Source: an uncultured Verrucomicrobiota bacterium (GTDB lineage Bacteria; Verrucomicrobiota; Kiritimatiellia; RFP12; UBA1067). Taken from it: DNA of 47,876 bases. Shown one piece after another: positions 444 through 47,876 of this stretch. The notes under the pieces are model-generated. The model was not told where the DNA came from, did no database searches, and saw only the letters and a list, made by a program, of their open reading frames with translations. The position numbers were made by a program, and so were the translations under genes. Every line of letters begins with the position of its first letter. Position 1 is the stretch's first letter. The stretch covers positions 1 to 47,876 of the forward strand of contig CAMNLW010000003.1 in NCBI GenBank assembly GCA_946544115.1, read 5' to 3'.

Positions 444-2951
444 ATGAGAAAGCAGGTTCGGTTCGGTATAGTCACCGCGTTTTGCGCGGTTGCATCGCTC
501 GTCGCACACGCGGATACCGTCGCGTGGTGGCGCTTCGAAGAGAAAGCCCCGGGCGAAAAAGCCGCCGCCGGTACGGTGAAGGATTCCGTGAACGATAAGA
601 TTGTCGCCCTTCCTGAAGTAAGCGAAGGAGCCACTGTTTACGAGGCAGGAACATCCACGTATGAATCTTCTGCCTATGCGCCCGTGTATGCGAGCCCGTT
701 TGCGGGGCGCAAGGTGGTCGATCCCGTCTCGGGCGCGACCTGCGTCAACAATGCCGCCATGAAGTTCTCCACTGCCAAGGGAGGCTCGGGCGATCTCCCC
801 GCGTACTACGGCGGCTGCCTTAAAGTGGCGAACACCCAAACGCTCCTCAAGGATTGCTCGTCAAATATCACCATCGAGGCGTTCATCTGCACGACCGGCG
901 GCTTGGACTGCGCGTACAACTTCGCCCCGATTGTCGCGTCAATCGACGGCACGAGCTGGGCCGGCGAGCGCTGGGCGCTCTACCTCGATACCGAGTCGAA
1001 AGGTCTTGGCCGTTTTGCAATGCGCATCAACACTAGAAAGGGTGTTGTGAAATATCAAGGCAACGCGCCGGCGAAAACGATCAACGACGGCGTCTGGCAT
1101 CATATCGCCTATGTGTATCATGGAACAGCCCAGAAACCCAACGTGAAACTTTATATCGACTACGTCTGTGTCGCGACTTATACCGATGCTGACATTGAGT
1201 CATCCATTCCTTACGGCGAGAACAATGCCATCTATATCGGCGGATATGACAAATATTCCAATAACGCCGGATATCGCCGATTCCCGGGCCTTATCGACGA
1301 GGTGCGAATCTCCGACGCCGTGCTTGAACCGGCGCAGTTCCTGCACCTCGTCTCGACGGGCGGCGATGACAAGGATGTGATTCTGCACATTCCGTTTGAA
1401 GGGTCGTCGTCGCCCGCCCTCACGGAAGGCGCGGTGCTCGGCGGCACGGTCGGCGGAGTCCAGGCTGTCTACCACGCGACCAAGGCCGCGGCGGGAGCTT
1501 CGGCGGCCTTCGACACGACCGAAAAGGCGGGCGCGTCCGTCGGCTCGGGGCTCTACGCCGATTCGACGGTCGCCGACGCCTCGTCGCTCTGCCTCGTTTC
1601 GGCCGATGACGGCGCGAAGGGCTGTTTCGTGCAGGCGCCCGCAGTGACCAGCGGGTTGTGGACGGAAGACCCCGGCCTGCCGGTCACGAACTTCAACTAC
1701 ACTGTGGAATGTTTCGCCAAGGCCGCCGTCAAAGGTCAGGTGCGCCGGACGATTCTCAAGATAGGCGCCTCCGGGTCATACATCCCCGCGCATTTCGTCA
1801 CGGGCGATTCCAACCATTCCAGCGAGGCCGAATTCTGCTGCGCCTTGAACGCAGGCCTTAAATGGACGTCCCTGGGCAGGTCGTCGGCCGACTTCGACGA
1901 CGGCGAATGGCACCACCTCGCGCTCGTGAGCGACGCGACGAACAAGGCCGTTCGCGTCTACTTCGACTACAGGCTCGTGGCGACGGAGAGCAACGCATAT
2001 CTGCCCGTCGCTCCCGGTTTCGGCCTGTATATCGGCTGCATGGAGCGCGGCGAGGGACAGTTCTTCGACGGCTGGATCGACGACGTGCGCGTGACGAAGC
2101 GCGCGCTCGATCCAGAGGAGTTCCTTACGACCCACGCCGTCGGCTCGGCTACGCAGCCTCTCCTCGCGGCGATGCTTGAGCGGAACTACGAATTTACCGG
2201 CGTGGCGGACTCCTATTGGACCTTGACCGGCACCGGCGCGGCGCGCACGGGCGGCACGGCTCCGGTCTTCGAGCAGGCTTCGCGCGGCGCGCTTCTCCTG
2301 GACGGCGCGAACGGCTCCAGTAGGGCGGTGAATGAATGGTCGGCCAAGATGGACCGCAGCAACATCACGTTCCCCGTGAGCCCGCTCTACGAGCAGGACG
2401 CCTACACGGTCGAGTTCTGGGCCAAGTTCGACGGCTACAAGGTGGGCGGTGAAGAAAAGGCCGCCGACGCCAAATTGGGCGGCAACAATCACGCCGGCGT
2501 CCTCCGTTTCGTGCGTGCCGATTCGACCACGTTCGACTGGTATCTCTTTCGCATTGCGGACAACCCGAGCGGCTTCCAGATCGCCATTCGCAACGCCAAG
2601 GGCACCATCGAATACAAGAGCTTCCTGCTTGAGAACCGGCTCGTGGCCGACGGCGAATGGCACCATTACGCCGTCCAGATCGCGCGGAATGCGGACAACA
2701 CGCAGTGCTCCGTGATGCTCTACGCAGACTACGAACCGCTCGCCTTTTCGTCCACCGCCCCCAAAGAGCCGCAGACGGTCGCCGGACTCTTCAAGTCGGC
2801 GACGGGCCACCGCCTGATGGTCTGCGAATCGACGAGCGCGGACTACAACATCCTCGGCAATATAGACGCGGTGCGCTTCTGGCGCGGAACGCCCGACCCG
2901 TCGCAGTTCCTCGGCCGCGCGCCGAACGGCCTTATGCTTATCGTCCGCTAG
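444..2951 (+). CDS. Secreted protein with three LamG-like (concanavalin A-like jellyroll) domains
   Basis: Signal peptide (..ASLVAHA/D). Three repeats with LamG_3 hallmarks: TIEAF/TVECF/TVEFW; DGVWHHIA/DGEWHHLA/DGEWHHYA; GLIDEVRIS/GWIDDVRVT/GNIDAVRFW. Ends in PNGLMLIVR. Confidence 0.85.
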   Translation: MRKQVRFGIVTAFCAVASLVAHADTVAWWRFEEKAPGEKAAAGTVKDSVNDKIVALPEVSEGATVYEAGTSTYESSAYAPVYASPFAGRKVVDPVSGATCVNNAAMKFSTAKGGSGDLPAYYGGCLKVANTQTLLKDCSSNITIEAFICTTGGLDCAYNFAPIVASIDGTSWAGERWALYLDTESKGLGRFAMRINTRKGVVKYQGNAPAKTINDGVWHHIAYVYHGTAQKPNVKLYIDYVCVATYTDADIESSIPYGENNAIYIGGYDKYSNNAGYRRFPGLIDEVRISDAVLEPAQFLHLVSTGGDDKDVILHIPFEGSSSPALTEGAVLGGTVGGVQAVYHATKAAAGASAAFDTTEKAGASVGSGLYADSTVADASSLCLVSADDGAKGCFVQAPAVTSGLWTEDPGLPVTNFNYTVECFAKAAVKGQVRRTILKIGASGSYIPAHFVTGDSNHSSEAEFCCALNAGLKWTSLGRSSADFDDGEWHHLALVSDATNKAVRVYFDYRLVATESNAYLPVAPGFGLYIGCMERGEGQFFDGWIDDVRVTKRALDPEEFLTTHAVGSATQPLLAAMLERNYEFTGVADSYWTLTGTGAARTGGTAPVFEQASRGALLLDGANGSSRAVNEWSAKMDRSNITFPVSPLYEQDAYTVEFWAKFDGYKVGGEEKAADAKLGGNNHAGVLRFVRADSTTFDWYLFRIADNPSGFQIAIRNAKGTIEYKSFLLENRLVADGEWHHYAVQIARNADNTQCSVMLYADYEPLAFSSTAPKEPQTVAGLFKSATGHRLMVCESTSADYNILGNIDAVRFWRGTPDPSQFLGRAPNGLMLIVR

Positions 2952-3793
2952 CCGCGCGCCGCCGGCGCGAGGGTGACGGTGTGGCGGCAGGTGCGGGGGA
3001 GGGTGTCGCCGCGGGCGGCTTCTTCGCGCGTCCCGAAAGTCTCGACGACGAATGTGATGCGCCCGTCGGCAGGCGTCGCGTCAAGCCTCATCCGCGCCTT
3101 TACCACCGTGTCGTTCGACATGACAACCTCGCAGTCGCCGATCTTTTCTCCGCCCGTCGATTCGATCCACACGCGCCCCTTCGCCGGCGCGTCGCCGCCT
3201 GCAGGCGCGACGTAGATCGCGCGTCCGTCGATCGTCACCTCGTCGCCGGGCGCGACCTCGCCGTACGTGTTGGCGGTTGAGCCGAGAATGTGGAGTATCG
3301 CAGATTGCGCGCCCGCCGCGTTGACAAGCTTCATGTTGGAGAGGGCGTACCTCATTGAAGGGCTCACCGTCGCGCGTATCTCAAGATGGTTCTCGGGCGG
3401 CGTCGCGGGGTCGTTGCTGTGGGCGATGGAGCCGGTGGCGAACAGCTTCAAAGTGACGAGATTGCCGATTCGCACACTGCGGCCGGTGCGCGCCATGTAG
3501 CGAGGCAGAATGTTGCAGAGCGTGTTGATCATGCCCTCGACCGCATCGGCGTGAAGGTTGAGACCGGCGGTGCGCAGTTCGTCATCGAGCGCGCCAAGGC
3601 CGACGATCTGGTCGTTGTCGCCCTCAAGCTGCAGACGAAAGCGCTGCACGCCCTTCATGGGGTTCACCGGAACCGCCGTAAACAGCATGCCGCCTTCAAG
3701 AGCGGTGTCGCGGCGGTCGACGACGGCGTCGAAGCGCGACTGCGCGGGCCTGAGGCTCGTTCTTCTGGGAGAGATAAGATCTGGTTTGTTCAT
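2948..3793 (-). CDS. Putative HU-like DNA-binding protein with C-terminal Ig-like (DUF4469-like) domain
   Basis: 281-aa ORF with its own promoter and RBS-like GAAAGGCGG. Central segment (LDDEL...VEGMINTL...GRSVRIGNLVTLKLFATG...LEIRATVSPSMRYAL) resembles Bacteroidetes-type HU-like domains, followed by a beta-rich module (GDEVTIDGRAIYV...VVMSNDTVVKARM). Confidence 0.6.
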   Translation of the reverse strand: MNKPDLISPRRTSLRPAQSRFDAVVDRRDTALEGGMLFTAVPVNPMKGVQRFRLQLEGDNDQIVGLGALDDELRTAGLNLHADAVEGMINTLCNILPRYMARTGRSVRIGNLVTLKLFATGSIAHSNDPATPPENHLEIRATVSPSMRYALSNMKLVNAAGAQSAILHILGSTANTYGEVAPGDEVTIDGRAIYVAPAGGDAPAKGRVWIESTGGEKIGDCEVVMSNDTVVKARMRLDATPADGRITFVVETFGTREEAARGDTLPRTCRHTVTLAPAARG

Positions 3794-3827: not shown

Positions 3828-3857
3828 ATTATAGCATATCCCGGGGAGGCTTGACAA
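3828..3857 (-). promoter_or_regulatory. Sigma70-type promoter for the HU-like gene
   Basis: Minus strand reads TTGTCA-N18-TATAAT, with an extended TG-C before the -10. Confidence 0.65.
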
Positions 3858-3863
3858 GGGGGT

Positions 3864-4050
3864 TGCCGGGGCGCGCTACAAAATACCTAATATTTTTGAT
3901 CAAAAGTATTAGGTATTTTTGATCAAAAGTATTAGGTATTTTTGATCAAAAGTATTAGGTATTTTTGGCCAAAAGTATTAGGTATTTTTGATCAAAAGTA
4001 TTAGGTATTTTTGATCAAAAATACCAGGTATTTTGTAGCGCGCCCCGGCA
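3864..4050. repeat. 187-bp foldback (MITE-like) element: 25-bp perfect terminal inverted repeats enclosing a 23-bp tandem array
   Basis: TGCCGGGGCGCGCTACAAAATACCT (3864-3888) is the exact reverse complement of 4026-4050. Five full units plus one partial unit of TATTTTTGATCAAAAGTATTAGG start at 3891, 3914, 3937, 3960, 3983 and 4006. Confidence 0.9.
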
Positions 4051-4065
4051 GGGGGCGAGGTTTAG

Positions 4066-4290
4066 TGTCTAGAGGCGCTGGCGGCGCTAGTCGTTCTAGA
4101 GCGTCTGGAGGGTCCAGTCTTCCTGGAATCTCTAGCGTCGGTAGTTGTTCTAGAACTTCTAGGCTAGCCTTTCTAGCTAGCGCTTCTAGTTCCTCTAACT
4201 CCTCTCGCCTCTCTAGCCCCTCTCGCGCTTCTAGCCCCTCTTGCTCCTCTAGTTCCTCTAGCCCCTCTCGCGCTTCTAGCCCCTCCCGCC
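4066..4290. repeat. CTAG-rich 9-bp-phased, pyrimidine-skewed repeat tract
   Basis: 15 CTAG tetramers between 4069 and 4279, 13 of them in the same phase modulo 9. Includes an exact 30-bp direct repeat at 4211-4240 and 4256-4285. Confidence 0.85.
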
Positions 4291-4337
4291 CCGCCTTTAC
4301 CCCCTCGGGTGACAAAAACTTTTTTTAATTTTCCCCC

Positions 4338-4390: not shown

Positions 4391-6943
4391 ATGAAAAAAC
4401 TATTAATTCTCGCGCTAGCAAGCGCAGTTGCCGCCGCGTCAAACGCGGCCGATTGGTTCAGCGTAGCCGTCAGCGGCTCTACACAAACAACGACTGGCGC
4501 ATCATGGTCGACAACGCCTGCGGCCGCAGATGTTGCCAACAACGTCATCAGCATTGATGCCGATGAAGCGATCACGCTCTCGCCTACCGCGACAAAGCCG
4601 TCGCCCGAGGTGAAGACAGTCGTGGAGGTTCAGGCGGCGTTCACGGCGGCCAGCGACTACAGCTCGCTCGAGCCGCTTAAAGACGCCAAGACCGCGCTCA
4701 CCGTCGCGAAGGACGGCAATACGCTCAAGTACTATTACTGGGATTCGGCAGAGTCCGATCCTAATGTTAACAAGTGGAAGGCTATCACGGACTTGACGCC
4801 GACGCTCAGCGAAACGCCCGTCACCGTCACGTTTGAGCTCGATAACAGCTCGACTGCGGCGACCACGGCCAAAATTACGATTGGCAATAAGACTGTTACG
4901 GTCGGGTTGGCGGCAGATACCACGCTCGGCGCCCTCGCCTTTGCCGGCACCGGCACCTTGAAGAGCGTTGACGCGACCGTCACCCCCGCGTATGCGACAT
5001 ATAACAACACGCGCTATGAGACGATGGCCAACGCTGTTACGGCAAGGGATGGCGGCAATGGCGTGATTACCGTTCACAATCCTACGGGAAGTTACCCGGG
5101 TGGCATCATTCAAAATTCGACCACCCATGAACTGTACTTCCCCCGTACAACGACTGCCGATCAGGACGGCTCGACGGTTCCTTACGAAATCGCCGATGCT
5201 GACGACCTCAAGGCCCTCGCGGATGCTGTTAATGCAGGCAATACTTGCTCTGGCAAGTGCTTTGTCCAGACCGCCGACATTGATATGACTGGCACTAGTG
5301 CGTTCGCCGGTGTCGGTACATATGCGGAGAACCCGACCGGAGGAACTCCTTTCGCCGGTACTTACGATGGCGGCAACTTCAAGATTTCAAATGTCACGAT
5401 GACCGCTCGCAACTATGGAGGCATCTTCAATCAGGTCAACGGCGGTACAATCAAGAATCTGACGGTCGAGAACATTTCGACTGCCGCGACATCGGTGGAG
5501 TTTGGCTATGCCATCGTTGGTAATGCCGGTAATGGTGCGACGCTCGAAAATCTTACTGCGGCTGGCGCTTTCCTCTCGACTGAGAAGCCTGGAACCCACA
5601 ATATGGCCGGTATCGTCGTTCGCGCGTGCGGCGGTGGTGTGAGTGGTACGCTGATTACGAGCTGCACGAACAACGCAACCATCTACGGCGACTATACGAA
5701 ATTGGGCGGAATCTGCGCGCTTACCCAGTATAAGGTGTCTGGCGGCGGTTCGGTCACGTTTGATGGTTGCGTTAACAATGGTACGCTTGTCTCTGCAAGA
5801 ACTGCTGAGGAGAATGCTTCAAAACAGATTACTGGCATTGCCGGTATTGTAGGCTATACGGCTGATGCGACCGTGTTGAAGGACTGCGTGAACAATGGTA
5901 CAATTACGGTTGCGCTTGCTGATCAGACGGTTGGAGAGTTGGTCGGAAGTGGTGGTGTTGAGACCCATGGCTCCCTTACTGACGCAGGTGGCAACAAGGC
6001 CGACGCGACGAAGAAGATGGTCCATACTCGTGGCGTTGTAACCGGCTTCCAGTATGCGACGGTCGCCAAGGATGTTGCAACGACTGTGACATCTCTCACG
6101 AAGGACACCACCTATCTCCTTGAGGGCAATGTCGCGGCTTCTGAAACGCCCGTCTTCACCCTCGCGGCCAATGGCGACAAAATTATGTTTGACACCGCGC
6201 TTGGCTATACCTTCAACGGCACGGTTGGTTCTTCCGTTCTTGGATGGTCGGCTAAGCCGACCTCTGACGGCACCGTAAAGACCTATTCGCTTGAGCAGAC
6301 GGCGACGCCGGTTGTTTCCGAAGCTGTGACGACGCTCGTTGCTGTTCCTCGCGACTGCAAGGCAGCAGAACTGATCGATCTCAGCAACCGCGCGGCTGGT
6401 GATGTGCTCAAGGTCTACAGCAAGGCCGACAGTGACAAGTGCTACTATACTTGGACGCTCTCCAGTGGAAAGGAGTGGACGCCTGCCACGACCTACAAGG
6501 TCAGCGAGGCAAGTGCCACATCGCACGAAAAGCCTGCTTCTGAAGTTCAGCTGTACGCTGGTCAGGCGGCGTGGCTGACGCGTGTAAACCCGAACGAGGC
6601 GATTACACTCGCCGTTGTGGCCGAAAGCGACACAATCAATGTGACTGTCGATAATGGCTGGAACATGATTGCTCCTCTGCCGAAGGGCAATGAGTCGACG
6701 GTTGCGCTCAACGCTGTTGTGTCTGCGGGTGCTGCAGGCGACGAGATTAAGATTCCGACTGCAGGCGCACCTATCACCTGCACGTACGATTCCAAGACAG
6801 AGAAGTGGGGCTATTGGTCGTTCATCAAGAACGACAAGGGCCGCATTACTGGCAAGACATGGGTTTCTGATGTGACCATTCCTGCAGGTACGGGTCTTTG
6901 GTACATCAATGGAGGCAGCAGCAAGTCTGTCGAACTCAAGTAA
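4391..6943 (+). CDS. Large secreted/surface protein, Thr/Ala/Gly-rich, with GLUG-type region
   Basis: Signal peptide MKKLLILALASAVAAASNA. The motifs YEIADADDLKALADAVNAG...QTADIDM...FAGTYDGGNFKISNV...GGIFNQVNGGTIKNLTV and repeated CxNNGT are typical of GLUG-motif surface proteins. Distinct C-terminal domain (GWNMIAP...IPAGTGLWY). Confidence 0.7.
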   Translation: MKKLLILALASAVAAASNAADWFSVAVSGSTQTTTGASWSTTPAAADVANNVISIDADEAITLSPTATKPSPEVKTVVEVQAAFTAASDYSSLEPLKDAKTALTVAKDGNTLKYYYWDSAESDPNVNKWKAITDLTPTLSETPVTVTFELDNSSTAATTAKITIGNKTVTVGLAADTTLGALAFAGTGTLKSVDATVTPAYATYNNTRYETMANAVTARDGGNGVITVHNPTGSYPGGIIQNSTTHELYFPRTTTADQDGSTVPYEIADADDLKALADAVNAGNTCSGKCFVQTADIDMTGTSAFAGVGTYAENPTGGTPFAGTYDGGNFKISNVTMTARNYGGIFNQVNGGTIKNLTVENISTAATSVEFGYAIVGNAGNGATLENLTAAGAFLSTEKPGTHNMAGIVVRACGGGVSGTLITSCTNNATIYGDYTKLGGICALTQYKVSGGGSVTFDGCVNNGTLVSARTAEENASKQITGIAGIVGYTADATVLKDCVNNGTITVALADQTVGELVGSGGVETHGSLTDAGGNKADATKKMVHTRGVVTGFQYATVAKDVATTVTSLTKDTTYLLEGNVAASETPVFTLAANGDKIMFDTALGYTFNGTVGSSVLGWSAKPTSDGTVKTYSLEQTATPVVSEAVTTLVAVPRDCKAAELIDLSNRAAGDVLKVYSKADSDKCYYTWTLSSGKEWTPATTYKVSEASATSHEKPASEVQLYAGQAAWLTRVNPNEAITLAVVAESDTINVTVDNGWNMIAPLPKGNESTVALNAVVSAGAAGDEIKIPTAGAPITCTYDSKTEKWGYWSFIKNDKGRITGKTWVSDVTIPAGTGLWYINGGSSKSVELK

Positions 6944-45933: not shown

Positions 45934-46012
45934 ACCGCCGACACCCGCCATTGCGGGGGTTTGTCCCCTTTATCCGCAGGGATGGTGTCCCCGGGTTGCG
46001 GGGTAGATGTAT

Positions 46013-46162
46013 TTACGGTCAGACCTTTTATATAAAAAGGTCTGACCTTTTGCACAAAAAGGTCTGACGATATTAACAAAAAGGTCTGACCATTTGCATA
46101 AAAAGGTCTGACCTTTTTCATCAAAAGGTCAGACGATATTGTATAAAAGGTCAGACCTTTTT
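46013..46162. repeat. Seven-copy 22-bp-period palindromic array (AAAA-GGTCWGACS-TTTT)
   Basis: Cores GGTC(A/T)GAC(C/G) start at 46017, 46039, 46061, 46083, 46105, 46127 and 46149 (exact 22-bp period), separated by variable AT-rich linkers. Confidence 0.9.
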
Positions 46163-46309
46163 GTCATGTACTCGGCAGGGCGAAGACGGCTACTCCCTGG
46201 GGACGACCGCGACAGTCGGGCGGTTCACGCTTGCGTGTCGCATGGTTCAAGAGCTAGACCAACCGGGGACATTCCCTCGTTTATTCTGTTGTGTTATCGT
46301 CAGAACGCA

Positions 46310-46400
46310 GGATTCGTTCATAAAAGTGTTGATGTAGGAACTAAGTACGTTCATGAAAATGTTGCGAACAAGGTTAAGTTCGTTCATAAAAGTGTGGATG
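46310..46400. repeat. Three-copy 33-bp-period direct repeat upstream of the ATPase promoter
   Basis: CGTTCAT starts at 46315, 46348 and 46381; copies 1 and 3 share 21/22 nt (46313-46334 vs 46379-46400). Confidence 0.8.
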
Positions 46401-47814: not shown

Positions 47815-47876
47815 CCCGGGGCCCCTGCATCTGGGGCGCTTACGCGCAACCACGAAAACCGGCGGGCGGCAGGTCG

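Follow-up and report, generated by a model that had tools for sequence, protein, structure and literature searches.

What kind of object is the 187-bp foldback sequence at positions 3864-4050 of contig CAMNLW010000003.1, and does it serve the locus in which it lies? The contig comes from a metagenome-assembled genome (MAG) of an uncultured Verrucomicrobiota bacterium of the class Kiritimatiellia (GCA_946544115.1), and the stretch analysed, referred to as the window, comprises its positions 1 to 47,876. A first-pass annotation, made from the letters of the window, had offered two answers: a non-autonomous mobile element with an iterated binding-site array, or a variable-number, invertible regulatory module. 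The element belongs to a dispersed repeat, here called family A, that is restricted to its species and carries no gene, and in which two inverted GC-rich ends clamp 4-7 head-to-tail units of 23 nt. [quoted passage not shown]

The window copy measures 187 bp as bounded in the first-pass annotation, and the stretch conserved among copies runs from about 3858 to 4057. Re-checking of the sequence agreed with the annotated terminal inverted repeats (TIRs): 3864-3888 (T-GCCGGGGCGCGCTACAAAATACCT) and 4026-4050 are perfect reverse complements of 25 nt, and the inverted repeat stretches to 42 nt with two mismatches (AA vs GG). A repeat finder reported an inverted pair of 91 nt, 79% complementary, spanning the entire element. 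Tandem Repeats Finder (TRF) assigned 3891-4034 a period of 23 bp, with 6.3 copies, 94% matches and a score of 253. Six 12-nt palindromes are set at 23-bp spacing in this array (starts 3894, 3917, 3940, 3963, 3986 and 4009); the annotation had given every unit the same palindrome, which is true of five (TTTTGATCAAAA), whereas the fourth (3963) is a GGCC variant, TTTTGGCCAAAA. The interior has about 25% GC, against about 62% for the window and the genome. Folding was far stronger than in shuffled sequences, none of 200 shuffles equalling the element in either test, with -65.5 kcal/mol (z -17.6) for single-stranded DNA and -114.9 and -88.4 kcal/mol (z -19.7 and -17.3) for the RNAs of the two strands.

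Read along the plus strand, the conserved stretch begins with an outer end of the second of two types, GGGGGTT (3858-3864), in which a G-run and T(T/C) precede the clamp, as in 6/12 loci. The left GC clamp, GCCGGGGCGCGCTAC (3865-3879), contains CTAC at 3876-3879, which reads outward as GTAG on the minus strand. The AT-rich interior (3880-4034) consists of seven 21-nt hairpin units with 2-nt linkers, the first unit being inverted and the last a variant. In the right end (4035-4057), GTAG (4035-4038) is followed by a GC hairpin formed by CGCCCC (4041-4046), a GGCA loop and GGGGCG (4052-4057).

When each unit is taken to open with the C of a GATC and to close with the G of the following one, it is a 21-nt hairpin, CAAAA-RTAY-TRG-GTAT-TTTTG, with a 9-bp stem of an A-run against a T-run, a 3-nt loop and an AT linker of 2 nt before the next hairpin, which gives the repeat length of 23 nt. 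Because these hairpins are set head-to-tail, TTTTGATCAAAA is the junction of two adjoining hairpin feet, and because they are self-complementary, the inverted repeat extends to 42 nt. The left segment AAAATACCTAATA is indeed the reverse complement of the unit's TATTAGGTATTTT, a match from which the first-pass annotation had derived the array from the terminal repeat; the data do not show such a derivation. The units abut without spacers and only the first is inverted. An array of short hairpins describes them better than an iterated array of binding sites. Among 97 internal units from 23 arrays or array fragments (MAG and metagenome contigs) only 12 variants occur, with the stem preserved, and exact TTTTGATCAAAA is present 51 times in the MAG alone. 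Stem positions 6 (A/G), 9 (C/T) and 15 (A/G, once) vary, all yielding G.T on one strand, and T>A at position 19 disrupts a pair in 13 units.

The ends, read outward, consist of GTAG and then CGCGCCCC-GGCA-GGGG(CG), with GTAG at 30/31 family-A ends. About half of the GTAG ends fold into a stable GC hairpin (dG -11 to -18 kcal/mol), and the remaining ends form the second type, ...GSCAACCCCC. The inverted repeats of the end pieces are conserved in all copies, and uncompensated changes accumulate in the ends. The element sequence is identical in an independent European Nucleotide Archive (ENA) assembly, and the same end and flank were found in the Logan assembly of another run, broken inside the array. 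The array with inverted ends is therefore a real structure and no assembler artefact.

A single copy genome-wide had been named in the first-pass annotation as an argument against mobility; the search recovered a repeat family instead. The MAG scanned comprises 2.28 Mb in 161 contigs and is 79% complete. A 23-nt end pattern with up to three mismatches gave 25 matches against 0 for the reversed control, and the 16-nt end core located 26 ends, which correspond to nine complete copies (C3, the window copy, and C17, C20, C22, C59, C62, C100, C126 and C137, each named for its contig) and eight truncated by contig ends. Metagenome contig L138 bridges the cut ends of C142 and C46, which brings the family to about 13-16 genomic loci. 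In an oriented alignment of the nine copies, similarity runs from approximately (G)CCGGGG / (G)CCGGGGCGCGC to approximately CCCCGGCAGGG(G) / GCGCGCCCCGGCAGGG(G), and the flanks beyond are unrelated. The copies are 90-98% identical to that of the window, occur in both orientations, measure 150-196 bp between end cores and have no coding capacity. Unit number in the MAG is 5 (C22), 6 (most copies) or 7 (C59). Arrays of the hairpin-array type avoid open reading frames (ORFs; 0/55), and no solitary family-A hairpin or end motif was found outside arrays in the MAG. Several copies adjoin GC-rich terminator-like hairpins. Likewise, a GC-rich hairpin module, GGGGCGGGGAC-TGT-CCCCGCCC followed by GGGGGCGGTTTTC, adjoins several copies (C126:322-360, C100:1365-1400, L135). 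Such extra modules are common to some family-A copies, and the organisation is therefore mosaic.

The family is confined to one species. BLASTN found the element in none of 24 same-genus and 16 same-order species genomes (0/40), and a comparison with plasmids gave no match. A specific 33-nt pattern had 0 occurrences in 185,579 species genomes and 0 in viral contigs, and was present on 11 metagenome contigs, of which nine derive from the MAG strain or a sister strain and the other two, L133 and L136, have no counterpart among the MAG contigs. The 16-nt end core was uninformative across genome contigs, where it returned 104+ single chance matches in unrelated phyla. The guaA gene next to the C100 copy has its best named matches in MAGs of Verrucomicrobia, Kiritimatiellae and Lentisphaerae, several of them from gut or rumen. 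Multiple copies, sharp ends, unrelated flanks, non-coding sequence, one host species and variable unit number together support the earlier suggestion to the extent that family A behaves as a non-autonomous dispersed element.

Comparison between strains points to turnover of the arrays. On contig L131 of the sister strain, which is orthologous to the window locus, an element of equal length occupies exactly the same position; the flanks are 96-98% identical, whereas the element is only 90.6% identical. The window array is homogenised (GTATTAGGTAT five times) and resembles the C62 copy, while the sister-strain array at the same locus has the mixed-unit pattern of C100, C126 and C137, a difference that speaks for concerted evolution of the copies or for gene conversion among them. 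Strain alleles differ also in unit number, with 4, 6 and 7 units at the C17 locus and 5 and 6 at the C137 locus. Judged from copies and alleles alike, the arrays expand, contract and are overwritten, through slippage or unequal exchange together with gene conversion between copies.

Family A is accompanied by two sibling families in the same genome. Whole-genome TRF detected about 60 arrays of period 22-23, belonging to families A, B and C, all with short hairpin units and 4-9 units per array. Family B is represented in the window (45974-46255, plus strand) by one copy of a dispersed repeat of 282 bp, which contains an array of 22-bp hairpins of unit AAAAGGTCWGACCTTTT; about 10 copies of the 282-bp repeat exist, many near contig ends. 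Family C has a 22-bp unit, an AAAGTCT-GGGCA-AGACTT hairpin plus linker, in 31 arrays of 3.5-8.7 units each, all intergenic (e.g., C5:6232-6356, C82:9686-9872, C1:61092-61208 and C11:14386-14558). The three families are unrelated in sequence, and the arrays of B and C have different TIRs or none. Among the 40 relatives, families B and C are essentially absent, with two faint matches for family B. An outward CSGCAGGG motif lies 10-11 nt beyond the array at 13/23 family-A and 5/18 family-B flanks, the background frequency being about 0.1 per kb per strand, and family C lacks it. A few further arrays use a different unit, GTCAGGCAGGCTTAAGGCATAA (C29:22048, C39:10831, C80:9356). Self-BLAST of the genome gave 97 repeat families, nearly all of 50-300 bp, and no repeat of the size of an insertion sequence (IS) in more than a few copies in the 79%-complete MAG.

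How such a family might be propagated is suggested by systems in which short hairpins are handled by a separately encoded enzyme. REPs cluster in tandem, and the REP-associated tyrosine transposase (RAYT) cleaves a GTAG motif on single-stranded REP DNA; in the related TIRYT/TIRtron systems, the TIRs form dispersed families (PMC3733652). Mobilisation of family A in trans by a Y1/HUH enzyme acting on single-stranded hairpins is, by analogy, a plausible if tentative proposal. An IS200/RAYT-like HUH/Y1 enzyme would recognise the folded hairpins and move or create copies in trans, as RAYTs handle REPs. The genome contains three Y1/HUH-like ORFs of about 350 aa with HUH-type motifs, at C31:20273-21376 (Y1-a), C31:18778-19866 and C29:17572-18609. 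Both C31 ORFs reach the Pfam Y1_Tnp cut-off, whereas the C29 ORF scores 16.8 bits against a cut-off of 23, and the C-terminus of Y1-a is winged-helix-like. The two C31 genes stand in tandem, and a palindrome, GGCGGACTTCAGTCCGCC, is present twice in this pair, one copy lying within the second gene and the other in the spacer that separates the two. A family-B-like hairpin (AAAGGGTCTGACCCTTTT) lies just 3' of Y1-a. The GTAG at 30/31 family-A ends also fits the proposal, as do the lack of a uniform target-site duplication and of any IS with family-A ends in the assembly.

Homologous enzymes in related genomes are associated with hairpins or TIRs of their own. Y1-like genes are present in 33/41 relatives, with up to 33 copies per genome. 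At 31-39% identity (E 1e-32 to 1e-46), Y1-a matches the multi-copy Y1 transposases of the relatives G032 (L167-L171) and G038 (L160-L166), which carry 22-33 copies of the homologous genes in elements of 1.0-1.5 kb. The G032 element of about 1.5 kb has a 23-nt TIR, AGTGTCAGACTATTACACTTGACA, with a GTCAGAC core; this TIR is duplicated at one end. In G038, one Y1 group has the same hairpin, CTTAAATAGTCTGTCCCTTTAAG, at both ends, and a second group is bracketed by reiterated A/T-clamped AAAACGGGG-ACACA-CCCCGTTTT hairpins (AAAACGGGGACACACCCCGTTTT). G038 contains the latter hairpin 118 times, where the control gives 0-1, and some of these copies are separated by only 21-36 bp. Furthermore, Y1 subclasses have been described that combine large C-terminal domains with no known REP partner, and class 3 Y1 enzymes in Planctomycetes and Acidobacteria are associated with atypical high-copy hairpins (PMC6006769).

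Several observations weigh against a mobile repeat served by a Y1 enzyme. No family-A sequence flanks the Y1 genes on C31 and C29, and no inverted repeats of the family-A type surround them; the MAG is incomplete and contig C31, for whose end no overlapping contig was found, stops 20 bp upstream of Y1-a, so that a partner may have escaped assembly. Nor does a solitary family-A hairpin occur outside the arrays of the MAG. Relatives without families A, B and C also commonly have Y1-like genes, and carriage of the enzyme is therefore no predictor of the repeat. A GTAG foot and a CGTC tag are both absent from the internal units, and GTAG at the ends could be chance, at roughly 1 in 25 post hoc. 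The G-run direct repeats found at half of the loci could represent a short duplication made by a DDE transposase. We infer mobility from distribution, and no empty site was recovered. At the C17 copy, relatives have panB directly followed by a different gene and synteny breaks, and all contigs encoding the identical neighbour protein of the window locus carry the element. Finally, differences in unit number between short-read assemblies can be collapse artefacts, and L138, with one palindrome, is suspect; those alleles that differ also in unit sequence, however, are not simple collapses.

A more far-reaching version of the Y1 proposal, which we regard as quite improbable, would make the 22-23-nt hairpin unit itself the minimal Y1/HUH substrate. 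The enzyme would add or remove unit-length single-stranded circles beside an existing unit, and the arrays would be quantised 'REP satellites'. Each unit would bear its own foot or target, in family A the closing TTGAT; the period would be set by the enzyme, as a molecular ruler common to families A, B and C, and the GC clamp would package the array into a transposable foldback. If true, this would be an enzyme-driven route to tandem arrays that is distinct from replication slippage, in a bacterium of the Planctomycetes-Verrucomicrobia-Chlamydiae (PVC) group and with a Y1 subclass thought to lack a repeat partner.

The strongest competitor is a classical MITE, in which the DDE transposase of a full-length IS would bind the double-stranded 25-nt TIRs and move the element by cut-and-paste, the 23-bp array being a passenger minisatellite and the IS lying in the unassembled 21% of the genome or having been lost. 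Small and strongly folded, with perfect TIRs and an AT-rich interior, the element matches the textbook description (PMC3049150), and multi-copy IS elements are often lost from MAGs. The first-pass annotation had, moreover, taken the GGGGG at 3858-3862 and 4051-4055 as a weak hint of target duplication. Those G-runs are present, and G-rich direct repeats lie just outside the ends at 6/12 independent loci (GGGGG...GGGGG in the window, GGGTGG...GGGTGG at C22); however, the other 6/12 loci have an inverted CCCCT...AGGGG, readable as an extension of the inverted repeat, and no uniform target-site duplication exists across the 12. The transposase or recombinase with the same ends that the first-pass annotation had proposed to look for is not in the 79%-complete MAG: no IS has family-A ends, no IS-sized multi-copy repeat is present, and the end core is confined to the short elements. 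The metagenome loci L133 and L136 bear no small transposase-like ORFs. The uncompensated changes in the ends and the existence of two sibling hairpin-array families with different or no TIRs also argue against a TIR-binding transposase, and this explanation is considered unlikely.

The repeat might alternatively be functional for its host, as phased binding sites, as a supercoil-sensitive cruciform that tunes promoters, or as a transcribed hairpin that stabilises or terminates upstream mRNAs, with copy number as the tuning knob. The window copy starts 7 bp upstream of the -35 box of a promoter with 11/12 consensus matches and is kept there in the sister strain, the period of 22-23 bp common to the three families is close to two helical turns, and it is 3' regions that contain most copies, a setting in which REP and BOX elements have known effects on transcripts (PMC3049150). 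Among placeable family-A copies, 9/14 sit 35-145 bp past a stop codon. The contexts are heterogeneous, however: copies stand 3' of panB-like, transporter and ClC channel genes and 5' of guaA and a sulfatase gene, a phosphodiesterase-like gene is a further neighbour, and the window copy and C100 (upstream of guaA) occupy divergent 5' gaps. Orientation relative to the upstream mRNA is five against four, no copy exists in the 40 relatives, and change has been faster in the element than in the flanks. Lacking a T-run after the clamp, the element is no canonical intrinsic terminator. A strand-specific RNA function, suggested by the G.T compatibility of every stem transition on one strand, was rejected, given that only three stem positions vary, the strand asymmetry is not significant (about 0.25) and orientation is balanced. 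A host function is thus very improbable, and the locus-specific, invertible regulatory module of the first-pass annotation is at odds with some 15 copies in unrelated contexts, mostly downstream of genes. If family A is a selfish or neutral repeat, its effects on neighbouring genes would be by-products, for example of a hairpin formed in 3' regions by RNA or DNA, or of the AT-rich foldback that begins, at the window locus, 7 bp upstream of the strong -35 box.

An assembler-made chimeric foldback at a low-complexity region has a negligible chance of explaining the element, for although eight copies lie at contig ends and the Logan contig is interrupted within the array, signs that assemblers have difficulty with the repeat, the nine complete copies differ in the order of their variant units and have unrelated flanks, the independent ENA assembly is identical and other metagenome contigs hold a differing allele at the same locus. 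Readings as a replication origin, an iteron set, a centromere or a Dam switch were also rejected, given about 15 dispersed copies, an ordinary genome-wide GATC density (4.05 per kb) and sibling families without GATC.

Among described systems, the pneumococcal BOX element is closest in architecture, and the REP/REPIN-RAYT and TIRtron systems are closest in mechanism. BOX elements of Streptococcus pneumoniae and S. suis comprise boxA, a variable tandem boxB and boxC (PMC3049150). Like family A, they are small, gene-less and dispersed, with partly complementary end modules that enclose variable tandem middle modules; they are strongly folded, intergenic, often co-transcribed and usable as variable-number tandem repeat (VNTR) markers, and in both cases the mobilising enzyme is unproven. 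The likeness is one of architecture only: no sequence relationship is apparent, the phylum is different, and boxB measures about 45 nt against the 23-nt self-complementary hairpin of family A. Furthermore, the family-A ends are true GC-rich inverted repeats, and family A has siblings, three families sharing the 22-23-nt period.

With REPs, BIMEs, REPINs (two inverted REPs forming one long hairpin) and TIRYT/TIRtrons, family A shares many short extragenic hairpins that are clustered, tandem and lineage-specific (PMC3733652, PMC6006769). Its 21-nt hairpin is of the 20-40 nt extragenic palindromic type, in many copies, that defines a REP, GTAG stands at the foot of the GC-rich end hairpins, and the two inverted end hairpins form a REPIN-like foldback, with an unusually long and repetitive spacer. 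The genome also has Y1/HUH genes, whose homologues in relatives are bracketed by A/T-clamped hairpins or 23-nt TIRs. In contrast to REPtrons, where a cognate RAYT is flanked by the same repeats, no Y1 gene is flanked by family A. The units are AT-rich, 21 nt long and without GTAG/CGTC, and they run head-to-tail with a 2-nt linker, whereas BIME REPs alternate with linker motifs. The Y1 proteins of the host, of about 350 aa with a large C-terminal domain, belong to a type that has been reported to lack REP partners.

MITEs of bacteria, among them the Correia element of Neisseria, RUP and Nezha, resemble family A in their TIRs of about 25 nt, length of 100-200 bp, AT-richness, intergenic position, folding and copy number, and they can abut or create promoters; family A differs in showing no uniform target-site duplication across the 12 loci and no parent IS in the MAG, and in an interior that is a regular tandem hairpin array. 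Drosophila foldback (FB) elements similarly place repetitive sequence inside an inverted structure; however, they comprise two opposed tandem arrays of hundreds of bp, whereas family A is one head-to-tail array that looks inverted via its self-complementary units. PATE-like elements derived from IS200/IS605 have different left and right subterminal hairpins and neither TIR nor duplication, and they insert 3' of a fixed tetra- or pentanucleotide; family A has clear TIRs, but also two end types and no uniform duplication, and each of its units ends in TTGAT, the target of ISDra2. Unlike the repeats of a CRISPR array, which are separated by unique spacers, family-A units abut. Rfam gave only sub-threshold matches of the hairpin arrays to plant and animal miRNA precursors, which any AT-rich hairpin would be expected to give, and one tRNA elsewhere in the window scored above the gathering threshold. 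Given that neither the flanked RAYT of a REPtron nor the parent IS and uniform duplication of a MITE were found in the 79%-complete MAG, family A works like these elements but is not filed as a member of any of them. As a regular array of tandem hairpins between GC clamps, it constitutes a new family and an unusual variant within a known kind of bacterial repeat.

The window copy lies between two genes without a Pfam family, both outside the element: a 281-aa ORF on the minus strand (2948-3793) and an 850-aa ORF with a signal peptide on the plus strand (4391-6943). For these neighbours, the earlier remark on the absence of an ORF or transposase nearby holds. A near-consensus sigma-70-type promoter for the leftward gene (3828-3857, minus strand) has a -35 box TTGTCA at 3852-3857, an 18-nt spacer and a TG-extended -10 box TATAAT at 3828-3833, and it lies outside the conserved element. 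At 3850-3864, the second-type end (...AACCCCCTT, minus strand) runs straight into the -35 hexamer, and the element end may supply the first bases of this box at the window locus; the C62 and C150 copies have AACCCCCTT too, but without the TTGTCA hexamer.

The 850-aa ORF is hypervariable between strains. Past the signal peptide, its DNA identity to the L131 allele is about 61%, against 96-98% for the surrounding DNA, and it is predicted to be a hypervariable gene for a surface or secreted protein. Directly right of the element, upstream of the promoter of this gene, lies a CTAG-rich tract (4060-4292) with 9-bp periodicity, which has 15 CTAG per 246 bp against 0.38 per kb genome-wide (about 160-fold) and a 45-bp (5 x 9) indel between the sister strains. 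A regulator might bind to this array, or it might be a second VNTR; the tract is unique in the genome, and its inclusion with the element in a composite repeat was rejected. Near the other end of the window, a 33-bp tandem repeat (46315-46400; 2.6 copies, CGTTCATAAAAGTGTTGATG...) is placed a short way upstream of an ORF whose start is at about 46442 (MKSKKPEIYVERKFDK...). The final 49 bases of the window (47828-47876) recur at or near the ends of at least seven other contigs (C140, C120, C20, C61, C1, C158 and C116), and appear from this recurrence to be another short dispersed repeat that breaks the assembly.

The hairpin arrays explain the fragmentation of the MAG, given that 8/17 family-A copies and many copies of families B and C lie at contig ends. 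Annotators should not mistake an AT-rich, GATC-studded array of this kind for an origin or a set of iterons, nor for a phase switch, and the family-A arrays are usable as VNTR markers for tracking strains of the uncultured host. With these families, Kiritimatiellia-like gut bacteria join the lineages that have experienced bursts of species-specific hairpin repeats. The common 22-23-nt unit and similar array lengths in three unrelated families could reflect enzyme-driven, unit-wise amplification. Together with the link in relatives between long Y1/HUH proteins and A/T-clamped hairpins, this shared unit could make these bacteria a tractable system for the study of tandem REP-type amplification.

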